Positions 13,306 to 34,038 of a DNA stretch of 64,000 bases are shown here, piece by piece. The number at the start of each line of letters is the position of its first letter. The first letter of the stretch is position 1. A program made the position numbers and the translations under genes. This DNA is from Acholeplasmataceae bacterium (GTDB lineage: Bacteria > Bacillota_I > Bacilli_A > Acholeplasmatales > Acholeplasmataceae), in the NCBI GenBank assembly GCA_963675245.1, contig OY775910.1, forward strand, positions 1,504,001-1,568,000. Reading direction: 5' to 3'. The notes under the pieces were generated by a model. It was given only the letters and a program-made list of their open reading frames with translations. It ran no database searches and had not been told where the DNA came from.

Positions 13306-14760
13306 CTAATAGTAAACGCTTACACGAACGAATGTACCACCATTAATCATGAGATTTAATAGGAGGTCTCGGACCTTCGTTTCGATGACGTAGTCATCGT
13401 TAATGGATTGTATATCAATACGCGCTGTTAAATACTCATCAACTTTCAAGTCTGAAAGGGGTGTTAATTGATAGTTTTTAGACATTTCTTGCATGTCTAC
13501 TAATGTCTCAAAGTAGACGATAAAACTAATGATGATTTTGGCTCTTATATTGAGATCTGTCAACAATTCAGCTAGGTGTTGTGTGCGTGCGATAATGAAT
13601 GCAGGTTTATGGAAAAATTGTTGTTCATATTCAGATTTATTAAAATCATGAAAATAGCGCATATCCATCTTGCGTTTTAACTTTGATTCTAAATAAGTTT
13701 TAAATTTAAGGACGCGCTTTTCAGCACGATAATGAAAATGTGCATTTATTTCGACAACATCTTTACCAAAAGCATATGCAACTATAATAAATTTAAAATA
13801 ATTTGCATAGACTAAAATATCTTGGAAAATACGATCAAATTCTTTTTGTGTACCCTTGAAACGATAATCTGCACAAAGTGTATAGCTTTCGTTGTAAACA
13901 AGTGGTTCAAATAAGGCATTAGCATAAACTTCCAACTGTCTATCGACATCATAATATTGATAAATATCATACGAAACACGACGATATAAAGTAACAAGTT
14001 CCCAAATACCTACTACTATCGTAATGATAAACAATGAACCTGCTAAACTATATCGCAATGGATCTGTAAATGAGGACAGTAAAACCAGGTAAATAACTGG
14101 TGGGAATAAACTGATTGCTAAGGCTCTAAACATAGATGTAAAACCTTTTAAGTGAATAATCCAGGCGAGTAAAAATAAGATTGTTACCATATAGAAAGTG
14201 AAGAATCGTTCCCAGTTAAAGTCATCTAATGTATTCACAATCATATTGATTTGATTAATGAATAAAAAGATACCTCCAGCAATAAACAACAGCATCAAAA
14301 GTTGTCTTAAACGCAAATACCACTTCATTGTATATAACTTTCTAGATTGTGGTAGGTGATAGAAATTTTTCATTGCTTTTCTATAATCATAAAATGGCCA
14401 TTTTGAGCCATGAAAAGAAATGTGAATTGGCAACACATCACCATCACTCATTATTTTGTTTAAATAGGTTTCGAAGCGTGCTAGCGGGTTTAAAACAAAG
14501 ATAAGGGTTGCTATCATCACAATCGGAATTTGATAATCTTGTAATAAGTATAGAAATAGTGCGGTTAAGCCACCATATATGATGTAAATGAACAATTTAG
14601 GTGTACTTCCAAATATATAAATAGCCATATATACGACAATGATAAGGACACTAATCAAAAAAATACCTTGTTCATGTACTTGTGCAAAAATAAGTACAAA
14701 AGGCAGAGTTATGAGTATAATTAATATGAAGATTAAGGATATAATTATACGTCGTTTCAT
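13306..14760 (-). CDS. polytopic membrane protein of unknown function with soluble C-terminal half
   Basis: Several hydrophobic helices in the N-terminal half; start moved to MKRRII (SD GAAGGGG). Confidence 0.7.
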   Translation of the reverse strand: MKRRIIISLIFILIILITLPFVLIFAQVHEQGIFLISVLIIVVYMAIYIFGSTPKLFIYIIYGGLTALFLYLLQDYQIPIVMIATLIFVLNPLARFETYLNKIMSDGDVLPIHISFHGSKWPFYDYRKAMKNFYHLPQSRKLYTMKWYLRLRQLLMLLFIAGGIFLFINQINMIVNTLDDFNWERFFTFYMVTILFLLAWIIHLKGFTSMFRALAISLFPPVIYLVLLSSFTDPLRYSLAGSLFIITIVVGIWELVTLYRRVSYDIYQYYDVDRQLEVYANALFEPLVYNESYTLCADYRFKGTQKEFDRIFQDILVYANYFKFIIVAYAFGKDVVEINAHFHYRAEKRVLKFKTYLESKLKRKMDMRYFHDFNKSEYEQQFFHKPAFIIARTQHLAELLTDLNIRAKIIISFIVYFETLVDMQEMSKNYQLTPLSDLKVDEYLTARIDIQSINDDYVIETKVRDLLLNLMINGGTFVRVSVYY

Positions 14761-14787
14761 GAATAACCCCTTCATTTCCATTATAAC

Positions 14788-14815
14788 AAAAAATGAGTGG
14801 GAAATCCCACTCATT
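14788..14815 (-). terminator. terminator of infC-rpmI-rplT
   Basis: AATGAGTGGG-AAAT-CCCACTCATT hairpin with a U-run on the minus strand. Confidence 0.8.
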
Positions 14816-16223: not shown

Positions 16224-16254
16224 AGCATTTCACTCCTTTATGTTGATATTTATG

Positions 16255-16365
16255 AAAAGAAAAAGTGCGTACGTCATGTACCCACTTAAAATAGTCAAAA
16301 TCGGCTTAGTGACTGGCTTGCCCATGAATGAATCATCAGGCGAGAGGGTACCTCTTCTTTTCACG
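16255..16365 (-). promoter_or_regulatory. L20 leader (ribosomal protein autoregulatory attenuator)
   Basis: AGAAGAGGTACCCTCTCGCCTGATGA...AAGTGGGTAC-ATGAC-GTACGCACTTTTT upstream of infC-rpmI-rplT, resembling the Firmicutes L20 leader with its terminator. Confidence 0.75.
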
Positions 16366-16444: not shown

Positions 16445-17116
16445 TTATGCTACATGTATCTCTTTTAAGTATACCAAAAATATCAATGATAATCCATAGA
16501 TAATATTGTAATAAATAGATAGTTGATAATGACTAAACATGTGATGATAAAAAGGTAATATATAGTATAATTCGATTCTTGTTGAATCTTCTAAAACAAT
16601 GGATATTAACATATAAAATGCCACCATCAAGAACGCCGTTTGTCGATATCTTTTAGGAGTAATTAGTAGCATTAGAAAAAACAATAAGATCATATCGTAA
16701 ACAATCGAAAATGATACGATAAAGTTTGATAAGTCCATTGCTGGATATAAGAATGATGCAATCCCTAATCTTAGTACGTTGACAAATATGCATAATATAA
16801 TAATGATGATTATGTGAACACTCATTTTAAGACGAACAACTTTGTTTTTTGAGAAATAGGCATATAGAGGTTCATCGTAGAGACTATTGAAATCAAACGT
16901 AATCGTTGCAAGCAATGCAGTCAATACCACGCGCATGATTTGATGACTCACAATATCATAATAAAGAAAAACTTCTTTAGGATAAAGCAGACGGTCCAGT
17001 GCTGAATCATTCGTCACGACTATAGCTATTAAAATCGTTAAATAACATGCCAGTAATATGCCAATAGCAATCACTTTTTTCTTATGAAGCATATAATGTA
17101 ATATCAAGGTTCTCAT
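16445..17116 (-). CDS. ABC-2-like membrane permease (about 6 TM)
   Basis: Highly hydrophobic; ATGA-coupled to the upstream ABC ATPase. Confidence 0.6.
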   Translation of the reverse strand: MRTLILHYMLHKKKVIAIGILLACYLTILIAIVVTNDSALDRLLYPKEVFLYYDIVSHQIMRVVLTALLATITFDFNSLYDEPLYAYFSKNKVVRLKMSVHIIIIIILCIFVNVLRLGIASFLYPAMDLSNFIVSFSIVYDMILLFFLMLLITPKRYRQTAFLMVAFYMLISIVLEDSTRIELYYILPFYHHMFSHYQLSIYYNIIYGLSLIFLVYLKEIHVA

Positions 17117-17673
17117 AATGAAATAGTCCTTGTTTTTAACGCACTAAATACATCTGGTTGATGACTAGATACGATAATCGTCACACCTACATTCTTAAGC
17201 TCTTCTAAATAGTTAATTAACTTCTCGATACTTTTATCATCGAATCCAGATAAAGGTTCATCTAGAATAATCAATTCACCATGCCCTATCAATGTTGAAA
17301 TAATGCTTAATTTCTGCTGATTTCCTTTTGAAAGTTGATGAACATGTCTAAATAAAGGTACATCAAATAAATGTAACAAATTAGAGTTAATATCACATTT
17401 TTTCATATGCATATGAAGTTTTATAAAGTGATAACCTTCTACAAAATGCGGTAATGACATTTGTTCTGGCAAATAGCTTATTTTTGCTTTTTTTCTTTTA
17501 ATTAAACCTTTATCAGGCTTAATAAATCCAAGGATTAATCTTAAAAGTGTTGTTTTACCACTGCCATTTTTTCCTGTTAATAAAATAAATTCTCCTGTTT
17601 TTATATCAATATTATATGGCTTAATCACATCATACTTATATACATCATGAAGCGATATTAACGTTATAGACAT
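17113..17673 (-). CDS. short ABC transporter ATP-binding protein
   Basis: GKNGSGKTT, LSKGN signature, ILDEP, SSH. Confidence 0.9.
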   Translation of the reverse strand: MSITLISLHDVYKYDVIKPYNIDIKTGEFILLTGKNGSGKTTLLRLILGFIKPDKGLIKRKKAKISYLPEQMSLPHFVEGYHFIKLHMHMKKCDINSNLLHLFDVPLFRHVHQLSKGNQQKLSIISTLIGHGELIILDEPLSGFDDKSIEKLINYLEELKNVGVTIIVSSHQPDVFSALKTRTISL

Positions 17674-18430
17674 GATTTAGAACTCCTGATGAGTAAAGTA
17701 TCGCATTCTCTCTTAAATAGCTAAAATAGTCAATTATTTGCGTCTGATCATCTATATATGTTATCGCAATTGGACAAGCATATAACAATTGATCATCATG
17801 ATCGATAGTAATGGTCAATAGTTGATTGGAAATCGTATAATCAAGTTCTTGATTTAAGCCAATACTGACACTTTTAATTGTCTGTGATAATGTGTCAAAA
17901 CTAATTGCAATCTCTTTAATTCTGGCAATACTTACATCTATTTCTTTAATCGCTTCAAGACTAGTCCAAAACATATAATCGACGTCATCTTTAATATCCA
18001 TATAACTAAATGATCCAATTTCAAATAAATAATTGATACCATTAAGTAAGGTAATTTCAAGAAAGGTATTTGCTATCCAGTAATCATCATTTAAAACAGG
18101 CAACTCAAACTCGAGCATATATGTCGTATATATGTCGTTTAGATAATTTTCTTCTCCATCAATACTGATGTTTGATAAAGTCAATGCTAATTTTTTTGAT
18201 GAATCTTCATTGATCAAATAGATCGATTGATACGCATCCATGTTAGTTAATAGATGTTCATCATTGGTTAAATAAAGTGGGACATCAATACCCTGAAATG
18301 GATCCATGACACTATAATATTGTGAGATAGTAATGGCTTTATCAGCGCGTGGTTTTTGATTCAGTCTGATGACGATAACTGCTGATATAGCTAGAATGAC
18401 CAAACACATATAAGTGATAACTTGTTTCAT
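17645..18430 (-). CDS. membrane-anchored or exported acidic protein of unknown function
   Basis: N-terminal hydrophobic helix and acidic, beta-rich remainder; ATGA-coupled to 18427..19053. Confidence 0.6.
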   Translation of the reverse strand: MKQVITYMCLVILAISAVIVIRLNQKPRADKAITISQYYSVMDPFQGIDVPLYLTNDEHLLTNMDAYQSIYLINEDSSKKLALTLSNISIDGEENYLNDIYTTYMLEFELPVLNDDYWIANTFLEITLLNGINYLFEIGSFSYMDIKDDVDYMFWTSLEAIKEIDVSIARIKEIAISFDTLSQTIKSVSIGLNQELDYTISNQLLTITIDHDDQLLYACPIAITYIDDQTQIIDYFSYLRENAILYSSGVLNHVYNVNIAS

Positions 18431-19053
18431 ATTCTTGTCTTCTCTAGTCTTGTATATTGTGTTGTCACAACAAACACTTCATAACCACCTTTACTAGACC
18501 GAAACCAAAAAGCATAGTAAGCAGCTACACCATTTGTAATTTTACCTTCACCATAAATATATAAATCAACTTGTGTACCTGGATCTACTTCAATTTTAAG
18601 TTCGTATGTCTCAGTCTTTTTGGTTGTCGACGTATATTCTGCAGAGAGTTTTAGAGATCCTTCTAAATTGTTTTTGAACTTCGCACTTGTGGATGTGGAT
18701 TTAATCCCAATTGACCCTGTAGCAGATAACGATAATCTGGATGTTGAATCTTCTGTTACTTTATAGCTATAAGAAAATGGCGTATATCCATCGTTGTAAT
18801 ATGAAAACACTGTTTCTGTTACATAGCTACACCCAATATCTTTATGGACAGGGTAAACACGCCACCCAAAAAATTTTCTTTTATCGACATTTTTATAATA
18901 TTTTCGATATTCTGCACTCGTAAAATCTGATAATAATTTACCACTATCAATTTCTAATTCCTCGAACGCCTGATAATTTGAGTCAGCATAGACATTCATC
19001 GTTCCTAACAATAAAACACTAAAGCATAATAATGTAAATAATAATTTTCTCAT
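18427..19053 (-). CDS. secreted protein, candidate aerolysin/ETX-MTX2-like beta-pore-forming fold
   Basis: Signal peptide ending VYA|DS; Ser/Thr-rich alternating strands around a hairpin, then EVDPGTQVDL. The ORF is confident; the fold is speculative. Confidence 0.5.
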   Translation of the reverse strand: MRKLLFTLLCFSVLLLGTMNVYADSNYQAFEELEIDSGKLLSDFTSAEYRKYYKNVDKRKFFGWRVYPVHKDIGCSYVTETVFSYYNDGYTPFSYSYKVTEDSTSRLSLSATGSIGIKSTSTSAKFKNNLEGSLKLSAEYTSTTKKTETYELKIEVDPGTQVDLYIYGEGKITNGVAAYYAFWFRSSKGGYEVFVVTTQYTRLEKTRI

Positions 19054-19115
19054 ATTTATTCCTCCACATTATCATAGTGCCATTTAGCAATAATTACTTA
19101 AAAAAAAGAAGCCCG

Positions 19116-20369
19116 TTAGGACTTCTTCATGATTGCTTCTATATCTACGACTTCTTTGATTATATCTTTTGTTAAATTAATTGCCCCATCCTTCGTCACG
19201 ACAATATCATCTTCAATACGGATACCAATCTTTTCTTCTGCAATATATAAGCCTGGTTCTACTGTTAAAATCGCACCTTCAGGAATCGGTTCATGATACA
19301 TACCAACATCATGCACATCTAATCCAAGATAGTGACCTAAGCTATGATAGTAATATTGACTAATGTCATGATCTTCATTAATCAAGCCAAGTTTTTTTGC
19401 TCCTTCAATAAGAATTTGTTTACCATACTCATTAAATTCCTTAAAGGTTACACCAGCTTTAACCCATTCAATGGTTTTCTTGTTTGCTTCTAAAACCACT
19501 TCATAGACGGCTTTTTGACGTTCGTTGAATTTACCATTAGCAGGATAAACTCTTGTGACATCTGAACAGTAATGATCCTTTTCAACACCTAAATCAAATA
19601 AGACTAAATCACCATCGTTAATAACACCATTATTGTCAACATAATGAAGGGTTGTTGCATGTCCACCTGCTGCAGCAATCGTTTTAAATGAAGGTGATGT
19701 ATGAGCTTTATTTAAGACGTAGTTATACTCAGCTTCAATTTCGTATTCAAGCATATCTGGTTTAAGATTATCCATGATACGATCTAATCCATCTTTCGTG
19801 ATAGCAACTGCCTTTTTAATGGCACTAATTTCATCTTCGCTTTTGACCATACGAAGTTTTGCTAGCATTCTTTGACATGGTTTCACTTGCAAATATGGAA
19901 AACCAACTTGTAATTCTTTAGCAAATTGATGTGCCTTTTTATCAGGTGCATCAACCGATAAACGCTCTAAATCAAAATAAGCCGTTTTTAATTCGCCAAA
20001 CAACGCCCGTCTTGAGGTTGATAATAAAGAAGTGATCGTTTCTTTAAGACTATCAATATATAAAATGTTTGATACCTCAAGTTCTGCAATGGTTGCTGCT
20101 TCTTCTTTTTCTAGCGTCTTTCCAGTCCATAATGCTTTAATCGGATCATTTTCTTCAATGAATAAATATGTTTTCGTTTCTAAATCTCCTTTTACCATGA
20201 GTAAAGCGACATTTTCTTGGTCAATACCTGTGAGGTAAAAGAAATTGCGGTCTACTGAAAAAGGAAATGATTCATCGTTAGTTCTAATCAGTGCGCTTCC
20301 TGAAAAACTCAATGTGAATGAGTGATTATCTGCAAATTTAAAATATTGTTCTCTTCGTTGTTTATACAT
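19116..20369 (-). CDS. pepP: Xaa-Pro aminopeptidase (M24B)
   Basis: NFFYLTG N-domain; LHY, DLG, SDVTR, HSLGHYLGLDVHD, TVEPG, IRIEDD. Confidence 0.9.
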   Translation of the reverse strand: MYKQRREQYFKFADNHSFTLSFSGSALIRTNDESFPFSVDRNFFYLTGIDQENVALLMVKGDLETKTYLFIEENDPIKALWTGKTLEKEEAATIAELEVSNILYIDSLKETITSLLSTSRRALFGELKTAYFDLERLSVDAPDKKAHQFAKELQVGFPYLQVKPCQRMLAKLRMVKSEDEISAIKKAVAITKDGLDRIMDNLKPDMLEYEIEAEYNYVLNKAHTSPSFKTIAAAGGHATTLHYVDNNGVINDGDLVLFDLGVEKDHYCSDVTRVYPANGKFNERQKAVYEVVLEANKKTIEWVKAGVTFKEFNEYGKQILIEGAKKLGLINEDHDISQYYYHSLGHYLGLDVHDVGMYHEPIPEGAILTVEPGLYIAEEKIGIRIEDDIVVTKDGAINLTKDIIKEVVDIEAIMKKS

Positions 20370-29721: not shown

Positions 29722-32700
29722 TTGAATAAAGACGAATTAAAGACAATAAAAACTGCATTTGAAGCCGAATTAAACCGTGATAAAATTTACCATCAAACCG
29801 AACGGTCTATCAGTAAACTAATTCGCGAAATTCCTTCAGAATTGAAGACAATTGCGCATCACGATAGTGATCAAAAAGCGCATTTTTCTAGTCGTATTAA
29901 TACCTTTAATGATGAATATCAGTCTAATGTATCAAACTTTGATAAAGCAATTAAACTGATTAACACTAAAAACGAAACAGAACTAAAAAATATAAAGCGT
30001 AAAAAAAATTATCAATTAGATAAAATCACAAAACGCTTCAATCAACAAATTGATACTTTAAATCAACGTCGTGAACAAGTTGAATCTGAATATAATCAAA
30101 AGTTAAAAGAAATTGAAACAACCCTTCAAAGAGATCTAGGAAGTTATCGAAAAGTATCTCAAAATGCACGTAAACTTAATCAAAAAGTCACACTAGAAAT
30201 TGAAAAAGAACAACAAGAAGCCTTAAAAGGGTTAAAAAACATTTTTGATAATTCGACGAAACAAAGAGATTTAAAACGCCAATCCTTCATTGAAGATTAT
30301 GGACAACGAAAAAAAGAAATCGATAGTAGACAACAAGATTCTACGACAAATAATAATAATGTTTATATCAGCATTAAAACAAACTATAATGAATTTTCGA
30401 TGATTTTCAATAAGAAAATCAACACCCTTAATAAAGAAAATCAAAACGCATTAAAAACTATTAAAGAGCGTTATGAGGCTAAACGCGAGCCTATTAATCA
30501 ACTTTTAATTAAGCTTAAAGATGATTACAATCGTGCTATCGAGCACTTAAAGCTTTCTCATCAAGAAGAGCTCATCAAAATGAATGAAGATTTCAAAGAT
30601 AAAAAACAACAATATGAAGAAAAAAAGGCACGTATAATTCATGAATCTAACGAAATCGTATCTTTATTAAATTCTAAATTAACGGCTTATAAAGAAGCGG
30701 TCAATCGTGATAATTTAGAATCTTCTAGACAATTAAGAAGCGAAATCAAATCAACAGATGATGAACATAAACAAGTGGATCTGCAAAAAGAAATTCGTGC
30801 AAATTTAAAAAATGCAAATAATGAATTAAATAAACAAATCATTCGAACAAATAAAGAGATTTCAGTTAAACAACGAGAATTTCATTATCGATTATACAAT
30901 CATGATTTAGCCTATTTAAAGTTAATTAATGATTGGCGACTACTCAAAACATTAACAAATTACAGATATAAGCAGTCAATCGCTAAGATTGATTTGAATT
31001 TTAATCATAATATTTCACAATCAAAAGCACAATTAGCCTTAAATGAAGCGATCTATAAACATCAAGAACAGCTTCTTAATCTTTCTTTAAATCGTGATTT
31101 ATTATCATTAGAAACGCAGTTACAGCTTGGTTCAATTATCCAAGAGAGAGAATTGAATTTGTTAACTAATGATCAACAAACCGCACTTAATATAACTAAG
31201 TTAGAACATGCACAATTGGATATAGATCATCAATTAGCCTTGGAAGAGTTGGATTTTTTACAAAAGAAAGATGAACTTTCCTATGAATACAATAAATTAA
31301 CTGTCAGTTCAAATACACAATTAGAACTTGAAAAAGCACGTAGTAGACGTGATTTTTCACTTGAAGAACAAGATATTAGAGGTGAAATCGCTAAAAAGAT
31401 TTATGAACGTAGTGAACATAACCTAGATCACGAAAAAAAGCTTTCTTTATTGGAAATCGATCACGAGATGAAGACGATCGAAATGACACAAGATAATGAC
31501 GCATTTCATATTGACTCATCCTATCGTAACCTCGCACATAAACGCATGTCATTTATGATGAAAGCATCGATCAAAAATCTAAAAAGATCGAGTATCGCTA
31601 ATGTTAATCGCGTTCGCAAAATAGATCATGAAGAATTACTGGATTATCATTATCATATTACACAATTTTTATCTTATTTGCTTCATTTACATGATAAAAG
31701 AATCTCCATGCGAAAACTCATCCATGACCTCTATTTAGCGCCATCACATCCCGAAACTTTCAAACAATCACTACAACTCGCCATACGTTTTGATCATGAA
31801 ATTGATTTAGCTATGCATGAATATATTCATACATTTGAAAATCGTTCTCGTGAAGTTTTTAAATTAAAAATTGATAACCAAAAAGATTATCGATCATTAT
31901 TAAAGCATGATGAAATCTTAAAATTCTATACTGCAAAAACAAAACGTTTAGACAGAGAACAAAAAGTCATTGAGTCAGAAATTCAACATATCGAGCAAAA
32001 CTACATTAAATTTCAATCTGATATTGATCAAAACAAATCATTTATCGCTCAACTTATTAAGATTAATGATCAAATCAAATCAGGTCTTTTACCTTTACAA
32101 ACCTCATATGATTATAGAGAAAATATAAAGCTAATTAAAAATCATCAAAAAGTGATAGCTCACTTAAAAGACAATATGAAACGTTCTGATCGTTTAATCA
32201 ATATTAAACACAAAGAAATTAATGCGCTAGCAAAAGAACAAACATCGGTTCAAAGAAGCATTGAGAATGAAACTAAAAAATTAACAAGAGAAAAAGAAAA
32301 CGAGTCACAATTCTACTTAAGACATTTAGTGAAGCTTGATAAACACTATAAAGTATTAAGTAAGAAACTCTCCCTCTTCACACATCATTCACTCTCATTT
32401 TATAGTGATTTAAAAGATTTAGTATATGTCACAAACGATGCATTGCAAAGTGCATTTAAAAAGCTTAGAACGCATCGTATGCAGTTTGAAAGACAACTCA
32501 TTGTCGCTGAACAACATCTATTAAGAGATACGTTAGCCTATTTTCAAGAATGTCAACATATTGAAGATAATCACGCAGTAGTTATCGCTAATAAGACGGC
32601 TAAATATATAAATGAAATCAATGATAATATCATAACATTCAACCATGATCAAGATAATGCATTAAAACTGCAAACAACGATGCTTTTAAAGCAAAACCGA

Positions 32701-33318
32701 GCAATGTCAAGAGATGAAATACACCAAAGAGATATACTTCATTTAAACAAAGAAAAAACAACTCATGTGGATTTACATGACATTAAGCAACTAGAAGAAA
32801 AATTGGATGCACATCTTGTTCATAGTGAATCAGAATTAAATGCACTCAATGAAAACCAACGTGCCATCGCACTACAATATGTTAAAGAAGCTGAACAAAA
32901 ATTAGATATTCATTATAAAGAGCATCAAAAGCATATTAATTTCTTTAAATCACGTTTCGCAAATACGTCAAATGATTTGGAAAGCACAAATGCAACCTTG
33001 CTAAATAAAAATCAAGTACTGCTATCACGCTATGTCGCTCAATACGCGAAAACAGTTGAAAACATGAAAAGTAAACTTGCTCATTATAATTCACAAATTG
33101 ATCATCATCTTTTAGATATTAAAAAAGCAACGGAACTTCATCACAAGGATGCTGCACTCAAAGATAAGCGCAGATTGGATGAACTGAATAACATCAAAAA
33201 TCATTTACATCGTTTTGAACAGCAGGCAGAATCAGCACAAAAGGGTACCCTTAGCAAAGAAACACTTGCATTAAAGCGTAATCTTAACTTCAAAATTAAA
33301 GCATTAAAATTAAATTAA
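29722..33318 (+). CDS. 1198-aa predicted coiled-coil protein of unknown function
   Basis: K/E/Q/L/N-rich heptad-like sequence with very few Pro/Gly; no Walker motif, TM helix or signal peptide seen. TTG start after SD AAAGGTG. Confidence 0.75.
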   Translation: MNKDELKTIKTAFEAELNRDKIYHQTERSISKLIREIPSELKTIAHHDSDQKAHFSSRINTFNDEYQSNVSNFDKAIKLINTKNETELKNIKRKKNYQLDKITKRFNQQIDTLNQRREQVESEYNQKLKEIETTLQRDLGSYRKVSQNARKLNQKVTLEIEKEQQEALKGLKNIFDNSTKQRDLKRQSFIEDYGQRKKEIDSRQQDSTTNNNNVYISIKTNYNEFSMIFNKKINTLNKENQNALKTIKERYEAKREPINQLLIKLKDDYNRAIEHLKLSHQEELIKMNEDFKDKKQQYEEKKARIIHESNEIVSLLNSKLTAYKEAVNRDNLESSRQLRSEIKSTDDEHKQVDLQKEIRANLKNANNELNKQIIRTNKEISVKQREFHYRLYNHDLAYLKLINDWRLLKTLTNYRYKQSIAKIDLNFNHNISQSKAQLALNEAIYKHQEQLLNLSLNRDLLSLETQLQLGSIIQERELNLLTNDQQTALNITKLEHAQLDIDHQLALEELDFLQKKDELSYEYNKLTVSSNTQLELEKARSRRDFSLEEQDIRGEIAKKIYERSEHNLDHEKKLSLLEIDHEMKTIEMTQDNDAFHIDSSYRNLAHKRMSFMMKASIKNLKRSSIANVNRVRKIDHEELLDYHYHITQFLSYLLHLHDKRISMRKLIHDLYLAPSHPETFKQSLQLAIRFDHEIDLAMHEYIHTFENRSREVFKLKIDNQKDYRSLLKHDEILKFYTAKTKRLDREQKVIESEIQHIEQNYIKFQSDIDQNKSFIAQLIKINDQIKSGLLPLQTSYDYRENIKLIKNHQKVIAHLKDNMKRSDRLINIKHKEINALAKEQTSVQRSIENETKKLTREKENESQFYLRHLVKLDKHYKVLSKKLSLFTHHSLSFYSDLKDLVYVTNDALQSAFKKLRTHRMQFERQLIVAEQHLLRDTLAYFQECQHIEDNHAVVIANKTAKYINEINDNIITFNHDQDNALKLQTTMLLKQNRAMSRDEIHQRDILHLNKEKTTHVDLHDIKQLEEKLDAHLVHSESELNALNENQRAIALQYVKEAEQKLDIHYKEHQKHINFFKSRFANTSNDLESTNATLLNKNQVLLSRYVAQYAKTVENMKSKLAHYNSQIDHHLLDIKKATELHHKDAALKDKRRLDELNNIKNHLHRFEQQAESAQKGTLSKETLALKRNLNFKIKALKLN

Positions 33319-33344
33319 AGAAGGTTGACATACCTTCTTTTTTT
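33317..33344 (+). terminator. intrinsic terminator
   Basis: AAAGAAGGT-TGACAT-ACCTTCTTTTTTT. Confidence 0.8.
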
Positions 33345-33433
33345 ATATAAAAATCCAACAACTTTAGTTTTTTAATTTTCTAAATAGTTAAGTTTTGGTC
33401 CATTTTTATGCGTATTTTATCAATTCTAAACAT

Positions 33434-33447
33434 TGTAAACGTTATCA
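33434..33447. promoter_or_regulatory. cre-like (CcpA/LacI-type) box upstream of the hydrogenase promoter
   Basis: TGTAAACGTTATCA fits TGWAANCGNTNWCA; extended -10 TGnTATAAT at 33489-33497. Confidence 0.55.
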
Positions 33448-33537
33448 AATAAATTTTTAATTTTGCCTCTTTATTTATAAAAAGTTCATGTTATAATTCA
33501 AGCAGAATATACGAATTATAATAGAGGAGAATTACAT

Positions 33538-34038
33538 ATGAATAAGTATGTCCCATTTGATGACAATCAGATGAAACTTTTTTATGCGCGCATTGATGAA
33601 AACCTAAAGTATCCAGGACCTTTGATGCCAACCTTACACGATGCACAAGAAGTTTTTGGTTACATTCCTATTTCTATCCAAAAAATTATCGCTGAAAAAT
33701 TAAATGTTAGTATTGCTACTATAAATGGTGTGGTCACCTTTTATAGTAATTTTTCGACTGAACCCAAAGGTGAACACCAAATTAATGTTTGTCTTGGAAC
33801 TGCTTGCTATGTTAAGGGTTCAAAAAATATTATGGAAACATTAGAAAATCATTTTCATGTAAAAGCTGGTGAAACCACAAAGGATGGCAAAGTAACATTA
33901 TGTGCCTCAAGATGTATCGGTGCATGTGGTCTAGCACCTGTTTTTTCAATTGATGAAAAAATAATTGGAACTGGATCAGTTGCAAAAGTTAATCAAGCCA
34001 TTAAAACATTGGAGGAAGAAACTGCTAATGAATCTTAA
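33538..34038 (+). CDS. NuoE-like [2Fe-2S] hydrogenase subunit (HydC/HndA-like)
   Basis: L..AQ..FGYIP, GVVTFY, VCLGTAC, CIGACGLAP. Confidence 0.9.
   Translation: MNKYVPFDDNQMKLFYARIDENLKYPGPLMPTLHDAQEVFGYIPISIQKIIAEKLNVSIATINGVVTFYSNFSTEPKGEHQINVCLGTACYVKGSKNIMETLENHFHVKAGETTKDGKVTLCASRCIGACGLAPVFSIDEKIIGTGSVAKVNQAIKTLEEETANES

Follow-up and report, generated by a model that had tools for sequence, protein, structure and literature searches.

Known pore formers of the aerolysin type are either accessory toxins or eukaryotic immune effectors. The toxins of the ETX/MTX2 type are accessory, often plasmid-borne and patchily distributed, and to our knowledge none of them is encoded in an operon with a membrane-anchored partner and an ATP-binding cassette (ABC) pump; pumps of the ABC-2 type commonly transport lipids and polymers. 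Here a four-gene cassette is described from a 64,000-nucleotide stretch of an Acholeplasmataceae bacterium (assembly GCA_963675245.1, contig OY775910.1, positions 1,504,001 to 1,568,000), referred to below as the window. Its first gene, A, encodes a small secreted protein for which an aerolysin-type fold is supported by a confident structural model and by profile similarity, and the operon that A forms with three partner genes, B, C and D, is old, has been passed on vertically and belongs to the core of nearly all Acholeplasma-like bacteria. The genes were read as open reading frames (ORFs) with translation table 11 (lengths in amino acids, aa):

18427-19053, minus strand: gene A, secreted protein, 208 aa, about 184 aa when mature
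17645-18430, minus strand: gene B, single-pass membrane protein, 261 aa
17113-17673, minus strand: gene C, minimal ABC ATPase, 186 aa, matching PF00005
16445-17116, minus strand: gene D, polytopic permease, probably six-helix and ABC-2-like, 223 aa

The four genes are co-directional and overlap one another between pepP and the promoter of infC. A and B share an ATGA at 18427-18430, C and D share another at 17113-17116, and B and C overlap by 29 nt (17645-17673). An earlier note on this DNA, made from the letters alone, had described four overlapping genes in this position, and the ORFs, overlaps and neighbours agreed with it in every detail; the 79-residue segment that it cited was found within A. 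When read with table 4 the frames continue past TGA. Here TGA is taken as a stop because all 35 aligned homologues of A end at the same C-terminus (...RLEKxxI). Two observations indicate that the genes are real: 281 homologues of A were found at E ≤ 0.01, and the gene order is repeated in 85 of the 90 loci with sufficient flanking sequence.

A structural model of A was obtained from an alignment of 122 diverse homologues (predicted local distance difference test score, pLDDT, 88.5; predicted template modelling score 0.78). It supersedes a poor first model built from 35 close homologues (pLDDT 63.1, below 50 in the hairpin), with which fold searches weakly gave the same families. Five strands are present in the model (residues 62-87, 93-104, 145-156, 160-181 and 184-207), and residues 105-144 form an insertion between strands 2 and 3 within which a hairpin at 107-138 falls. 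This corresponds to the strand layout given for the aerolysin family in PMC5654971, namely five strands with an insertion. Thirty-seven residues precede strand 1, the loop between strands 4 and 5 is two residues long, and no separate receptor- or membrane-binding domain was found in the model or by Pfam, which returned no lectin or other domain. As modelled, A is the five-strand pore-forming module alone with a 37-residue N-terminal cap, and its mature length agrees with the minimal size of about 185 aa that the earlier note had suggested.

Comparison of the model with the PDB by Foldseek returned six matches at E ≤ 1e-3, all of them aerolysin-type: Dln1 twice (best E 6.9e-5, probability 1.0), the lamprey immune protein twice, Cry23Aa1 and parasporin-2 (9.9e-4). 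Next in order were Clostridium perfringens enterotoxin, Cry51, LSL, the Bombina aerolysin-like protein, epsilon toxin, monalysin, lysenin and HA70. An independent search of 48,161 representative chains with VIA-align ranked the Bombina aerolysin-like protein first (Z 6.5, root-mean-square deviation 5.5 Å, 124 of 152 residues aligned), followed by parasporin-2 and the lysenin pore (Z 5.9) and then by Sip, a Salpingoeca lectin, Mpp75 and epsilon toxin. A second look at the Foldseek list gave 25 chains at Z ≥ 5, and the titles of all 50 rows listed were toxin, aerolysin-like, HA70/HA3 or Bacteroides putative-toxin; Sip, the Salpingoeca lectin, Tpp80 and HA70 presumably contain aerolysin-like modules. 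A hidden Markov model (HMM) of the A family, searched against all PDB sequences, gave 12 matches at E ≤ 10, headed by five: Dln1 (E 0.0017), parasporin-2 (0.0045), the lamprey protein (0.046), Mpp75 (0.058) and Cry78 (0.078). These five alignments span residues 85-170 of A, covering an Asn turn, the hairpin and a V-x-P turn. A weak lead in the same direction came from a protein-language search (Atlas), in which ETX/MTX2 clusters appeared at 0.90 behind 28 Mycoplasmatota clusters (143-146 shared features). The earlier note had read A as aerolysin/ETX-MTX2-like and had proposed that a monomer model of 18427-19053 be compared with known pore formers by Foldseek; that comparison gave aerolysin-type structures, epsilon toxin, monalysin and lysenin among them, and the confident model, the VIA-align ranking and the profile matches to Dln1 and parasporin-2 uphold the assignment.

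Within A, the following elements were located:

18982-19053, minus strand: signal peptide, residues 1-24, cleavage between VYA and DS, read by eye
18640-18735, minus strand: amphipathic stem hairpin, residues 107-138, from column statistics over 122 sequences
18793-18795, minus strand: Asn87 at the end of strand beta1, invariant in 122 of 122 sequences
18580-18588, minus strand: V156-D157-P158 turn after strand beta3, from conservation and the HMMER alignment

Across the 122 sequences the hairpin is hydrophobic at odd positions from 107 to 123 and at even positions from 126 to 138, the intervening residues being Ser, Thr or Lys, and has a Lys-rich turn (Lys-Lys) at 124-125. The hydrophobic fraction was 0.84 at position 109, 0.74 at 111, 0.95 at 115, 0.61 at 117, 0.57 at 119 and 0.64 at 123 on the first arm, and 0.93 at 126, 0.92 at 130, 0.94 at 134 and 0.70 at 136 on the second. 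A therefore carries the alternating pattern, suited to a membrane-spanning β-hairpin, that characterizes the stem loop of the aerolysin superfamily, and it does so between strands 93-104 and 145-156, in the section aligned to Dln1 and parasporin-2. N87 is the sole invariant residue of the family, V156 is hydrophobic in all 122 sequences and position 158 is Pro in 101 of them; HMMER aligns N87 and V156-P158 with the Asn and the V-P of Dln1 and parasporin-2. PMC5654971 names aerolysin N206 and V285-P286-A287 as the most conserved positions of the family. N87 plausibly corresponds to N206, and the V156-P158 turn to V285-P286-A287, an equivalence drawn indirectly rather than from a direct alignment with aerolysin. 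Both the amphipathic insertion hairpin and the V-x-P turn to which the earlier note had drawn attention are thus conserved features of the family. Taken with the fold, the conserved alternation and the retention of residues linked to the prepore-to-pore change argue that A still inserts a β-hairpin into a membrane.

The N-terminus of A reads by eye as MRK, a hydrophobic core and the VYA/DS cleavage site, and by pattern reading a hydrophobic N-terminal stretch with an A-x-A-like site is present in each of the 122 aligned relatives, a lipobox-like motif being seen in just three. A signal peptidase I is encoded in the genome (93.6 bits against a cut-off of 47), and these results fit the cleavable signal peptide that had been proposed. 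In the alignment of 122 sequences many distant relatives share a T-G-H motif directly after the predicted cleavage site, in place of which the subfamily of the window protein has S-N-Y-Q.

No Pfam family matched A at E ≤ 1 and no NCBIfam model matched it; a six-frame search of the genome with ETX_MTX2 (PF03318) likewise gave no match at E ≤ 1. Among the 122 relatives, two matched Aerolysin (PF01117; best E 7.3e-4), and PF03318 was absent from the 25 most-matched Pfam families listed at E ≤ 1. The gathering score of neither model is reached by A. Since no Pfam model covers it, A founds a new sequence family within the known aerolysin-type superfamily. A search of 1.84 billion representative proteins placed no more than 166 clusters in the family at E ≤ 1e-3, nearly all of 200-225 aa, and the names attached to homologues and related loci include Acholeplasmataceae, Mariniplasma and Peloplasma. 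One source names a homologue of A 'DUF3108', a name that Pfam did not reproduce at E ≤ 1.

B has one N-terminal membrane helix, as expected for the anchored 261-aa partner that had been described, followed by an acidic extracellular domain. The window protein has a pI of 4.05 and a net charge of about -26, and the median net charge of its orthologues is -13.8 (n = 39). No family was assigned to B by Pfam or NCBIfam, nor by Pfam on 50 orthologues; a profile search of PDB sequences gave a single chance match (E 0.025), Atlas returned only unnamed clusters (0.92), and by hhalign B is unrelated to A. C matches PF00005 (E 3.1e-21), and Walker A, a signature-like LSKGNQQ, Walker B and the H-loop were recognized by eye. 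No NCBIfam equivalog matched C at its cut-off, the CcmA, FtsE, ABC-F, lantibiotic-protection and lactococcin-972 models scoring 70-94 bits against cut-offs of 130-380. For the immunity-type transporters C scored 73.7 bits against 309.75 with TIGR03740 (lantibiotic protection) and 80.1 against 254.85 with TIGR03608 (lactococcin-972); C is thus not of a recognized immunity-ABC type, and equal or higher scores come from the generic CcmA, FtsE and ABC-F models. D has no Pfam or NCBIfam match. Its orthologues have 4-7 hydrophobic segments, and two of 46 match PF12730 (ABC2_membrane_4; best E 8.2e-5). The earlier note recognized no named system with this layout, and this remains so: A, B and D are without a Pfam or NCBIfam model, and no publication on the A family or the four-gene operon came up in the literature searches made.

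Conservation of the gene order was examined by a script that walked downstream of A in 63 close (Acholeplasmataceae-like) loci and 40 diverse loci from eleven families, counting loci with at least 2.3 kb of room and scoring a cassette as complete when A was followed in turn by a single-pass protein (230-340 aa), an ABC ATPase and a polytopic protein (190-260 aa). By this measure all 50 close loci and 35 of the 40 diverse ones were complete, and B adjoins A in 50 of 50 and 39 of 40, respectively. Co-occurrence of the four genes had been set beforehand as a test that could refute their association, and with 85 of the 90 loci with enough flank complete it was passed. One of the five misses (L091) is an artefact of ORF choice, as a 238-aa ORF does follow C. 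In two loci of genus g3 (L110, 1711-6001, and L118, 1707-6001) A and B are followed by two half-transporters of about 590 aa, each with ABC_membrane and ABC_tran domains, and the 4-nt overlaps are kept. Here the pump seems to have been exchanged for a non-orthologous one, which suggests that the functional tie is to an ABC exporter in general. The two remaining misses are L112, where the ATPase is missing, and L084, where B is. The cassette is flanked by pepP upstream and infC downstream in the majority of Acholeplasmataceae loci and also in other families; a locus from another family (L084) keeps even the PGM-like gene before pepP.

Across a sample of the order, A was present in 104 of 121 genomes, one copy each. 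Of the 33 genera 31 had it, and the other two have genomes of 0.6-0.9 Mb. A broader profile found a divergent A in one of these two, g11 (three of three genomes, E about 1e-22), and no match in the other, g10. The class sample gave matches in 109 of 300 genomes at E ≤ 1e-3, from which three hits in family f11 and a second hit in the bacterium's own genome are to be discounted as N-terminal matches of 47-75 residues (about 5e-4). In the phylum sample (E ≤ 1e-5) A was found in 82 of 399 genomes, concentrated in nine families at or near 100%: f1 (29/30), f2 (11/11), f4 (7/7), f19 (13/13), f22 (4/4), f14 (7/7), f21 (7/7), f7 (2/2) and f28 (1/1). At the same threshold it was not found in f16 (0/54), f24 (0/89), f12 (0/42), f8 (0/48), f11 (0/16) and others. 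A occurs in its own order and in six other families of the phylum. For 41 A proteins a tree, made by a quick method with Shimodaira-Hasegawa-like approximate likelihood ratio support only, needs 11 changes of family label against a minimum of 10 and a shuffled mean of 30.4, none of 200 shuffles being as low, a result in keeping with vertical descent of A.

The locus in g11 (L124, 3035-6711), a genus with a genome of about 0.7 Mb, reads A' (240 aa), B1 (294), B2 (275), C (189) and D (230). Here A' is longer and divergent, two B-like anchored proteins stand in tandem, and homologues of A' were seen in metagenome records only. In g10, which has a genome of about 0.9 Mb and lacks A, a rearranged region (L130) has a DnaB-like helicase gene and tsaD before infC in place of pepP and the cassette.

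The genes of the locus differ in rate. Median identities to the window protein over 53 close and 35 diverse loci, respectively, were 67% and 53% for infC, 60% and 49% for pepP, 56% and 35% for A, 44.5% and 34% for C, 33% and 25% for B, and 23% and 23% for D. These values indicate that A is constrained almost like a housekeeping enzyme, and that its partners drift fast.

The surroundings of the cassette in the window are as follows:

19116-20369, upstream neighbour of the cassette: pepP, with AMP_N and Peptidase_M24 domains by Pfam
19105-19128, minus strand: terminator-like hairpin 3' of pepP, the upstream boundary of the cassette
19061-19065, minus strand: GGAGG ribosome-binding site, 7 nt 5' of the ATG of A
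16402-16374, minus strand: promoter 3' of D, matching the consensus at 12 of 12 positions (TTGACA-17-TATAAT)
16251-16365, minus strand: L20 leader match (RF00558) by Rfam, between the promoter and infC

The upstream gene is named pepP because of its two domains. Between its terminator and the ribosome-binding site no convincing promoter for A was found by motif scan or by eye. The L20 leader match is full-length but sub-threshold (35.1 bits against the Rfam gathering score of 58.7, E 3.4e-4). Together with the promoter it forms the downstream boundary of the cassette, after which lies the infC-rpmI-rplT operon. Directly downstream of rplT, a 502-aa polytopic membrane protein (13306-14814, minus strand) has no Pfam family at E ≤ 1e-4. 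Elsewhere in the window a 1198-aa ORF (29722-33318, plus strand), opposite in orientation to most of its neighbours, has no Pfam match at E ≤ 1e-4 and lies within the part of lowest guanine-plus-cytosine content (30001-34000; 0.29-0.30), where the AT skew is strongly positive (0.15-0.21).

The reading preferred here, though held tentatively, is that by analogy with known members of the fold A is a lineage-wide pore former, with B and the ABC pump guarding or handling it on a producer without murG. No match to murG was found in the genome, in keeping with a wall-less producer. A would be exported by Sec and cut after VYA, and its model suggests a soluble monomer in which the stem loop (107-138) lies against the sheet; at a membrane it would be expected from the family to oligomerize and to extend the amphipathic hairpin into a β-barrel. 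B, with its single membrane pass and acidic ectodomain, and the putative ABC-2-type pump formed by C and D are probably translationally coupled to A. On the murG-less producer they may keep A from, or clear it out of, the cell's own membrane, or may hand it over in a controlled way. The role would be one of lineage-wide physiology, for example the release of nutrients from neighbouring or host membranes, rather than strain-level bacteriocin warfare, because the operon is ancient, vertically inherited and near-universal. A wall-less producer would have to keep such a protein away from its own membrane, so that a coupled anchored protein and exporter make sense; the earlier note had proposed that these partners provide immunity or assembly.

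A number of observations weigh against A being such a guarded pore former. Template modelling scores of the structural matches are low (0.17-0.29) and no Z reaches 8, a range that can reflect a common arrangement, although most of this doubt is removed by the sequence-profile evidence; no model of the Pfam aerolysin clan reaches threshold on A. The Lys-rich tip of the hairpin would be costly to push through a bilayer, and A lacks a receptor-binding domain. The partners are not strictly required, since A is kept where one of them has gone: L084 lacks B and has shortened C and D, and L112 lacks the ATPase, A and B being followed there by a 269-aa four-helix protein. A near-threshold murG in some A-bearing lineages (248.5 bits against a cut-off of 250.25 in genome G151, for example) indicates that the tie to wall loss is not strict. 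Finally, A is single-copy with a tree that follows taxonomy, it is retained in a genome of about 0.7 Mb, and it is conserved at housekeeping level; this whole set of traits would not be expected of a toxin and would suit a cell-intrinsic role just as well.

These last points are also what recommends a housekeeping task on the producer's own membrane, a possible if rather doubtful explanation in which A, held by B, would act as a gated pore, a release valve or a scaffold for vesicles or the cell surface, driven or reset by the ABC motor. It would be in accord with the distribution of A as a single-copy core gene (in 104 of the order's 121 sampled genomes and in the nine families at or near 100%), with vertical inheritance and conservation of A near that of pepP and infC, with the fixed position among the PGM-like gene, pepP and infC even in another family, and with the persistence of A alongside two B paralogues in a genome of 0.7 Mb; A without a receptor-binding domain and B anchored in the producer's own membrane also suit it. 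An aerolysin-fold protein might on this account have been domesticated for the envelope physiology of wall-less bacteria, forming with B and the ABC motor an ATP-controlled β-barrel or surface assembly (a gated conduit, a device for vesicle release or a scaffold) on the cell's single membrane, a suggestion to be made with equal reserve; if true, it would be the first endogenous, non-toxin use of the aerolysin fold in bacteria. However, an open aerolysin-type barrel in the sole membrane would dissipate ion gradients, and a gating element is not known. A has a cleavable signal peptide and not an anchor, large groups of wall-less relatives do without it (f16, f24, f12 and f8, none of whose 54, 89, 42 and 48 genomes gave a match), and the near-threshold murG genes noted above loosen the link to wall loss for this explanation as well. 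It is unlikely that A, while retaining the aerolysin-like sheet, forms no pore at all and serves instead as an extracellular carrier, binder or adhesin like the non-toxic HA70/HA3, taking up or delivering a hydrophobic substrate such as a lipid, lipoglycan or pigment that B and the putative ABC-2 exporter would move. HA70/HA3 and a 'non-toxic crystal protein' are among the fold matches of A, conservation is strong along its whole length, and the usual cargo of ABC-2-type pumps would suit such a role; but a binder would need neither the alternating hairpin of two arms of about 14-17 residues that has been maintained over 122 divergent sequences nor the Asn and V-x-P residues, likewise retained, that are linked to the change from prepore to pore (PMC5654971).

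The earlier note had likened the locus to bacteriocin self-protection loci; read in that way it would be an accessory bacteriocin or toxin cassette, with B as the immunity protein and C and D as an immunity ABC transporter, directed against competing strains. A secreted pore-former-like protein beside an ABC pump invites the analogy, as do the sub-threshold matches of C to the lantibiotic-protection and lactococcin-972 models (73.7 bits against 309.75 and 80.1 against 254.85), but those matches are generic, with CcmA, FtsE and ABC-F scoring as well or better. Such cassettes are accessory, strain-variable and horizontally spread. A is instead a core gene, in single copy and inherited vertically, that evolves slowly across an entire order and in additional families; it is present in almost every genome of that order (104 of 121) with no sign of transfer in the tree of 41 proteins, and its cassette sits at a fixed housekeeping locus. 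A is slow and B and D are fast, the opposite of co-diversifying toxin-immunity pairs. The bacteriocin interpretation is largely refuted by this distribution and is considered very improbable.

Whether A is a guarded pore former or a domesticated one, the finding would be new, as either a pore-forming toxin kept as a stable core trait with built-in self-protection or an aerolysin-type fold with a cell-intrinsic job. In the former case it would bear on how wall-less bacteria feed and compete. The fold itself is known; what is new is the four-gene layout, together with the presence in Mollicutes-type bacteria of a minimal aerolysin module that is coupled to an ABC transporter, inherited vertically and part of the core. 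At about 184 aa when mature, A is among the smallest aerolysin modules and would be attractive for studies of pore assembly and for nanopore engineering, and a lead to function is provided for four 'hypothetical' genes in most Acholeplasma-like genomes.

Among described systems, the ETX/MTX2-type toxins (parasporin-2, epsilon toxin, C. perfringens enterotoxin and Mpp/Cry51) have the same five-strand module with an insertion hairpin as A, but are proteins of 250-350 aa with receptor-binding domains, whereas A is smaller and has none. Dln1, which is natterin-like, and the lamprey immune protein (4zno and 5zu4) gave the best profile match (E 0.0017) and the best Foldseek match (E 6.9e-5, probability 1.0) of A, with both turns (Asn and V-P) and the stem hairpin inside the aligned region; identity is 12-14%, and both carry an N-terminal lectin domain for targeting that A lacks. 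The C/D pair, a small ATPase and a putative six-helix permease, resembles the LanFEG-type and related ABC-2 pumps by which lantibiotic producers protect themselves and which likewise stand beside a secreted membrane-active product; the role proposed here, to expel the product from the membrane of the cell that makes it, follows the same principle. The product in this case would, however, be a folded protein of 20 kDa and not a peptide, the locus is core and not accessory, and C scores 73.7 bits against the 309.75 set for lantibiotic protection. The best structural match was the Bombina maxima aerolysin-like protein (6lhz/6lh8, the betagamma-CAT module), which works with a partner protein. It is eukaryotic, shares about 11% identity with A, lacks a linked transporter and has a partner that bears no relation to B; yet both it and A are essentially the bare pore-forming module without a large receptor domain.

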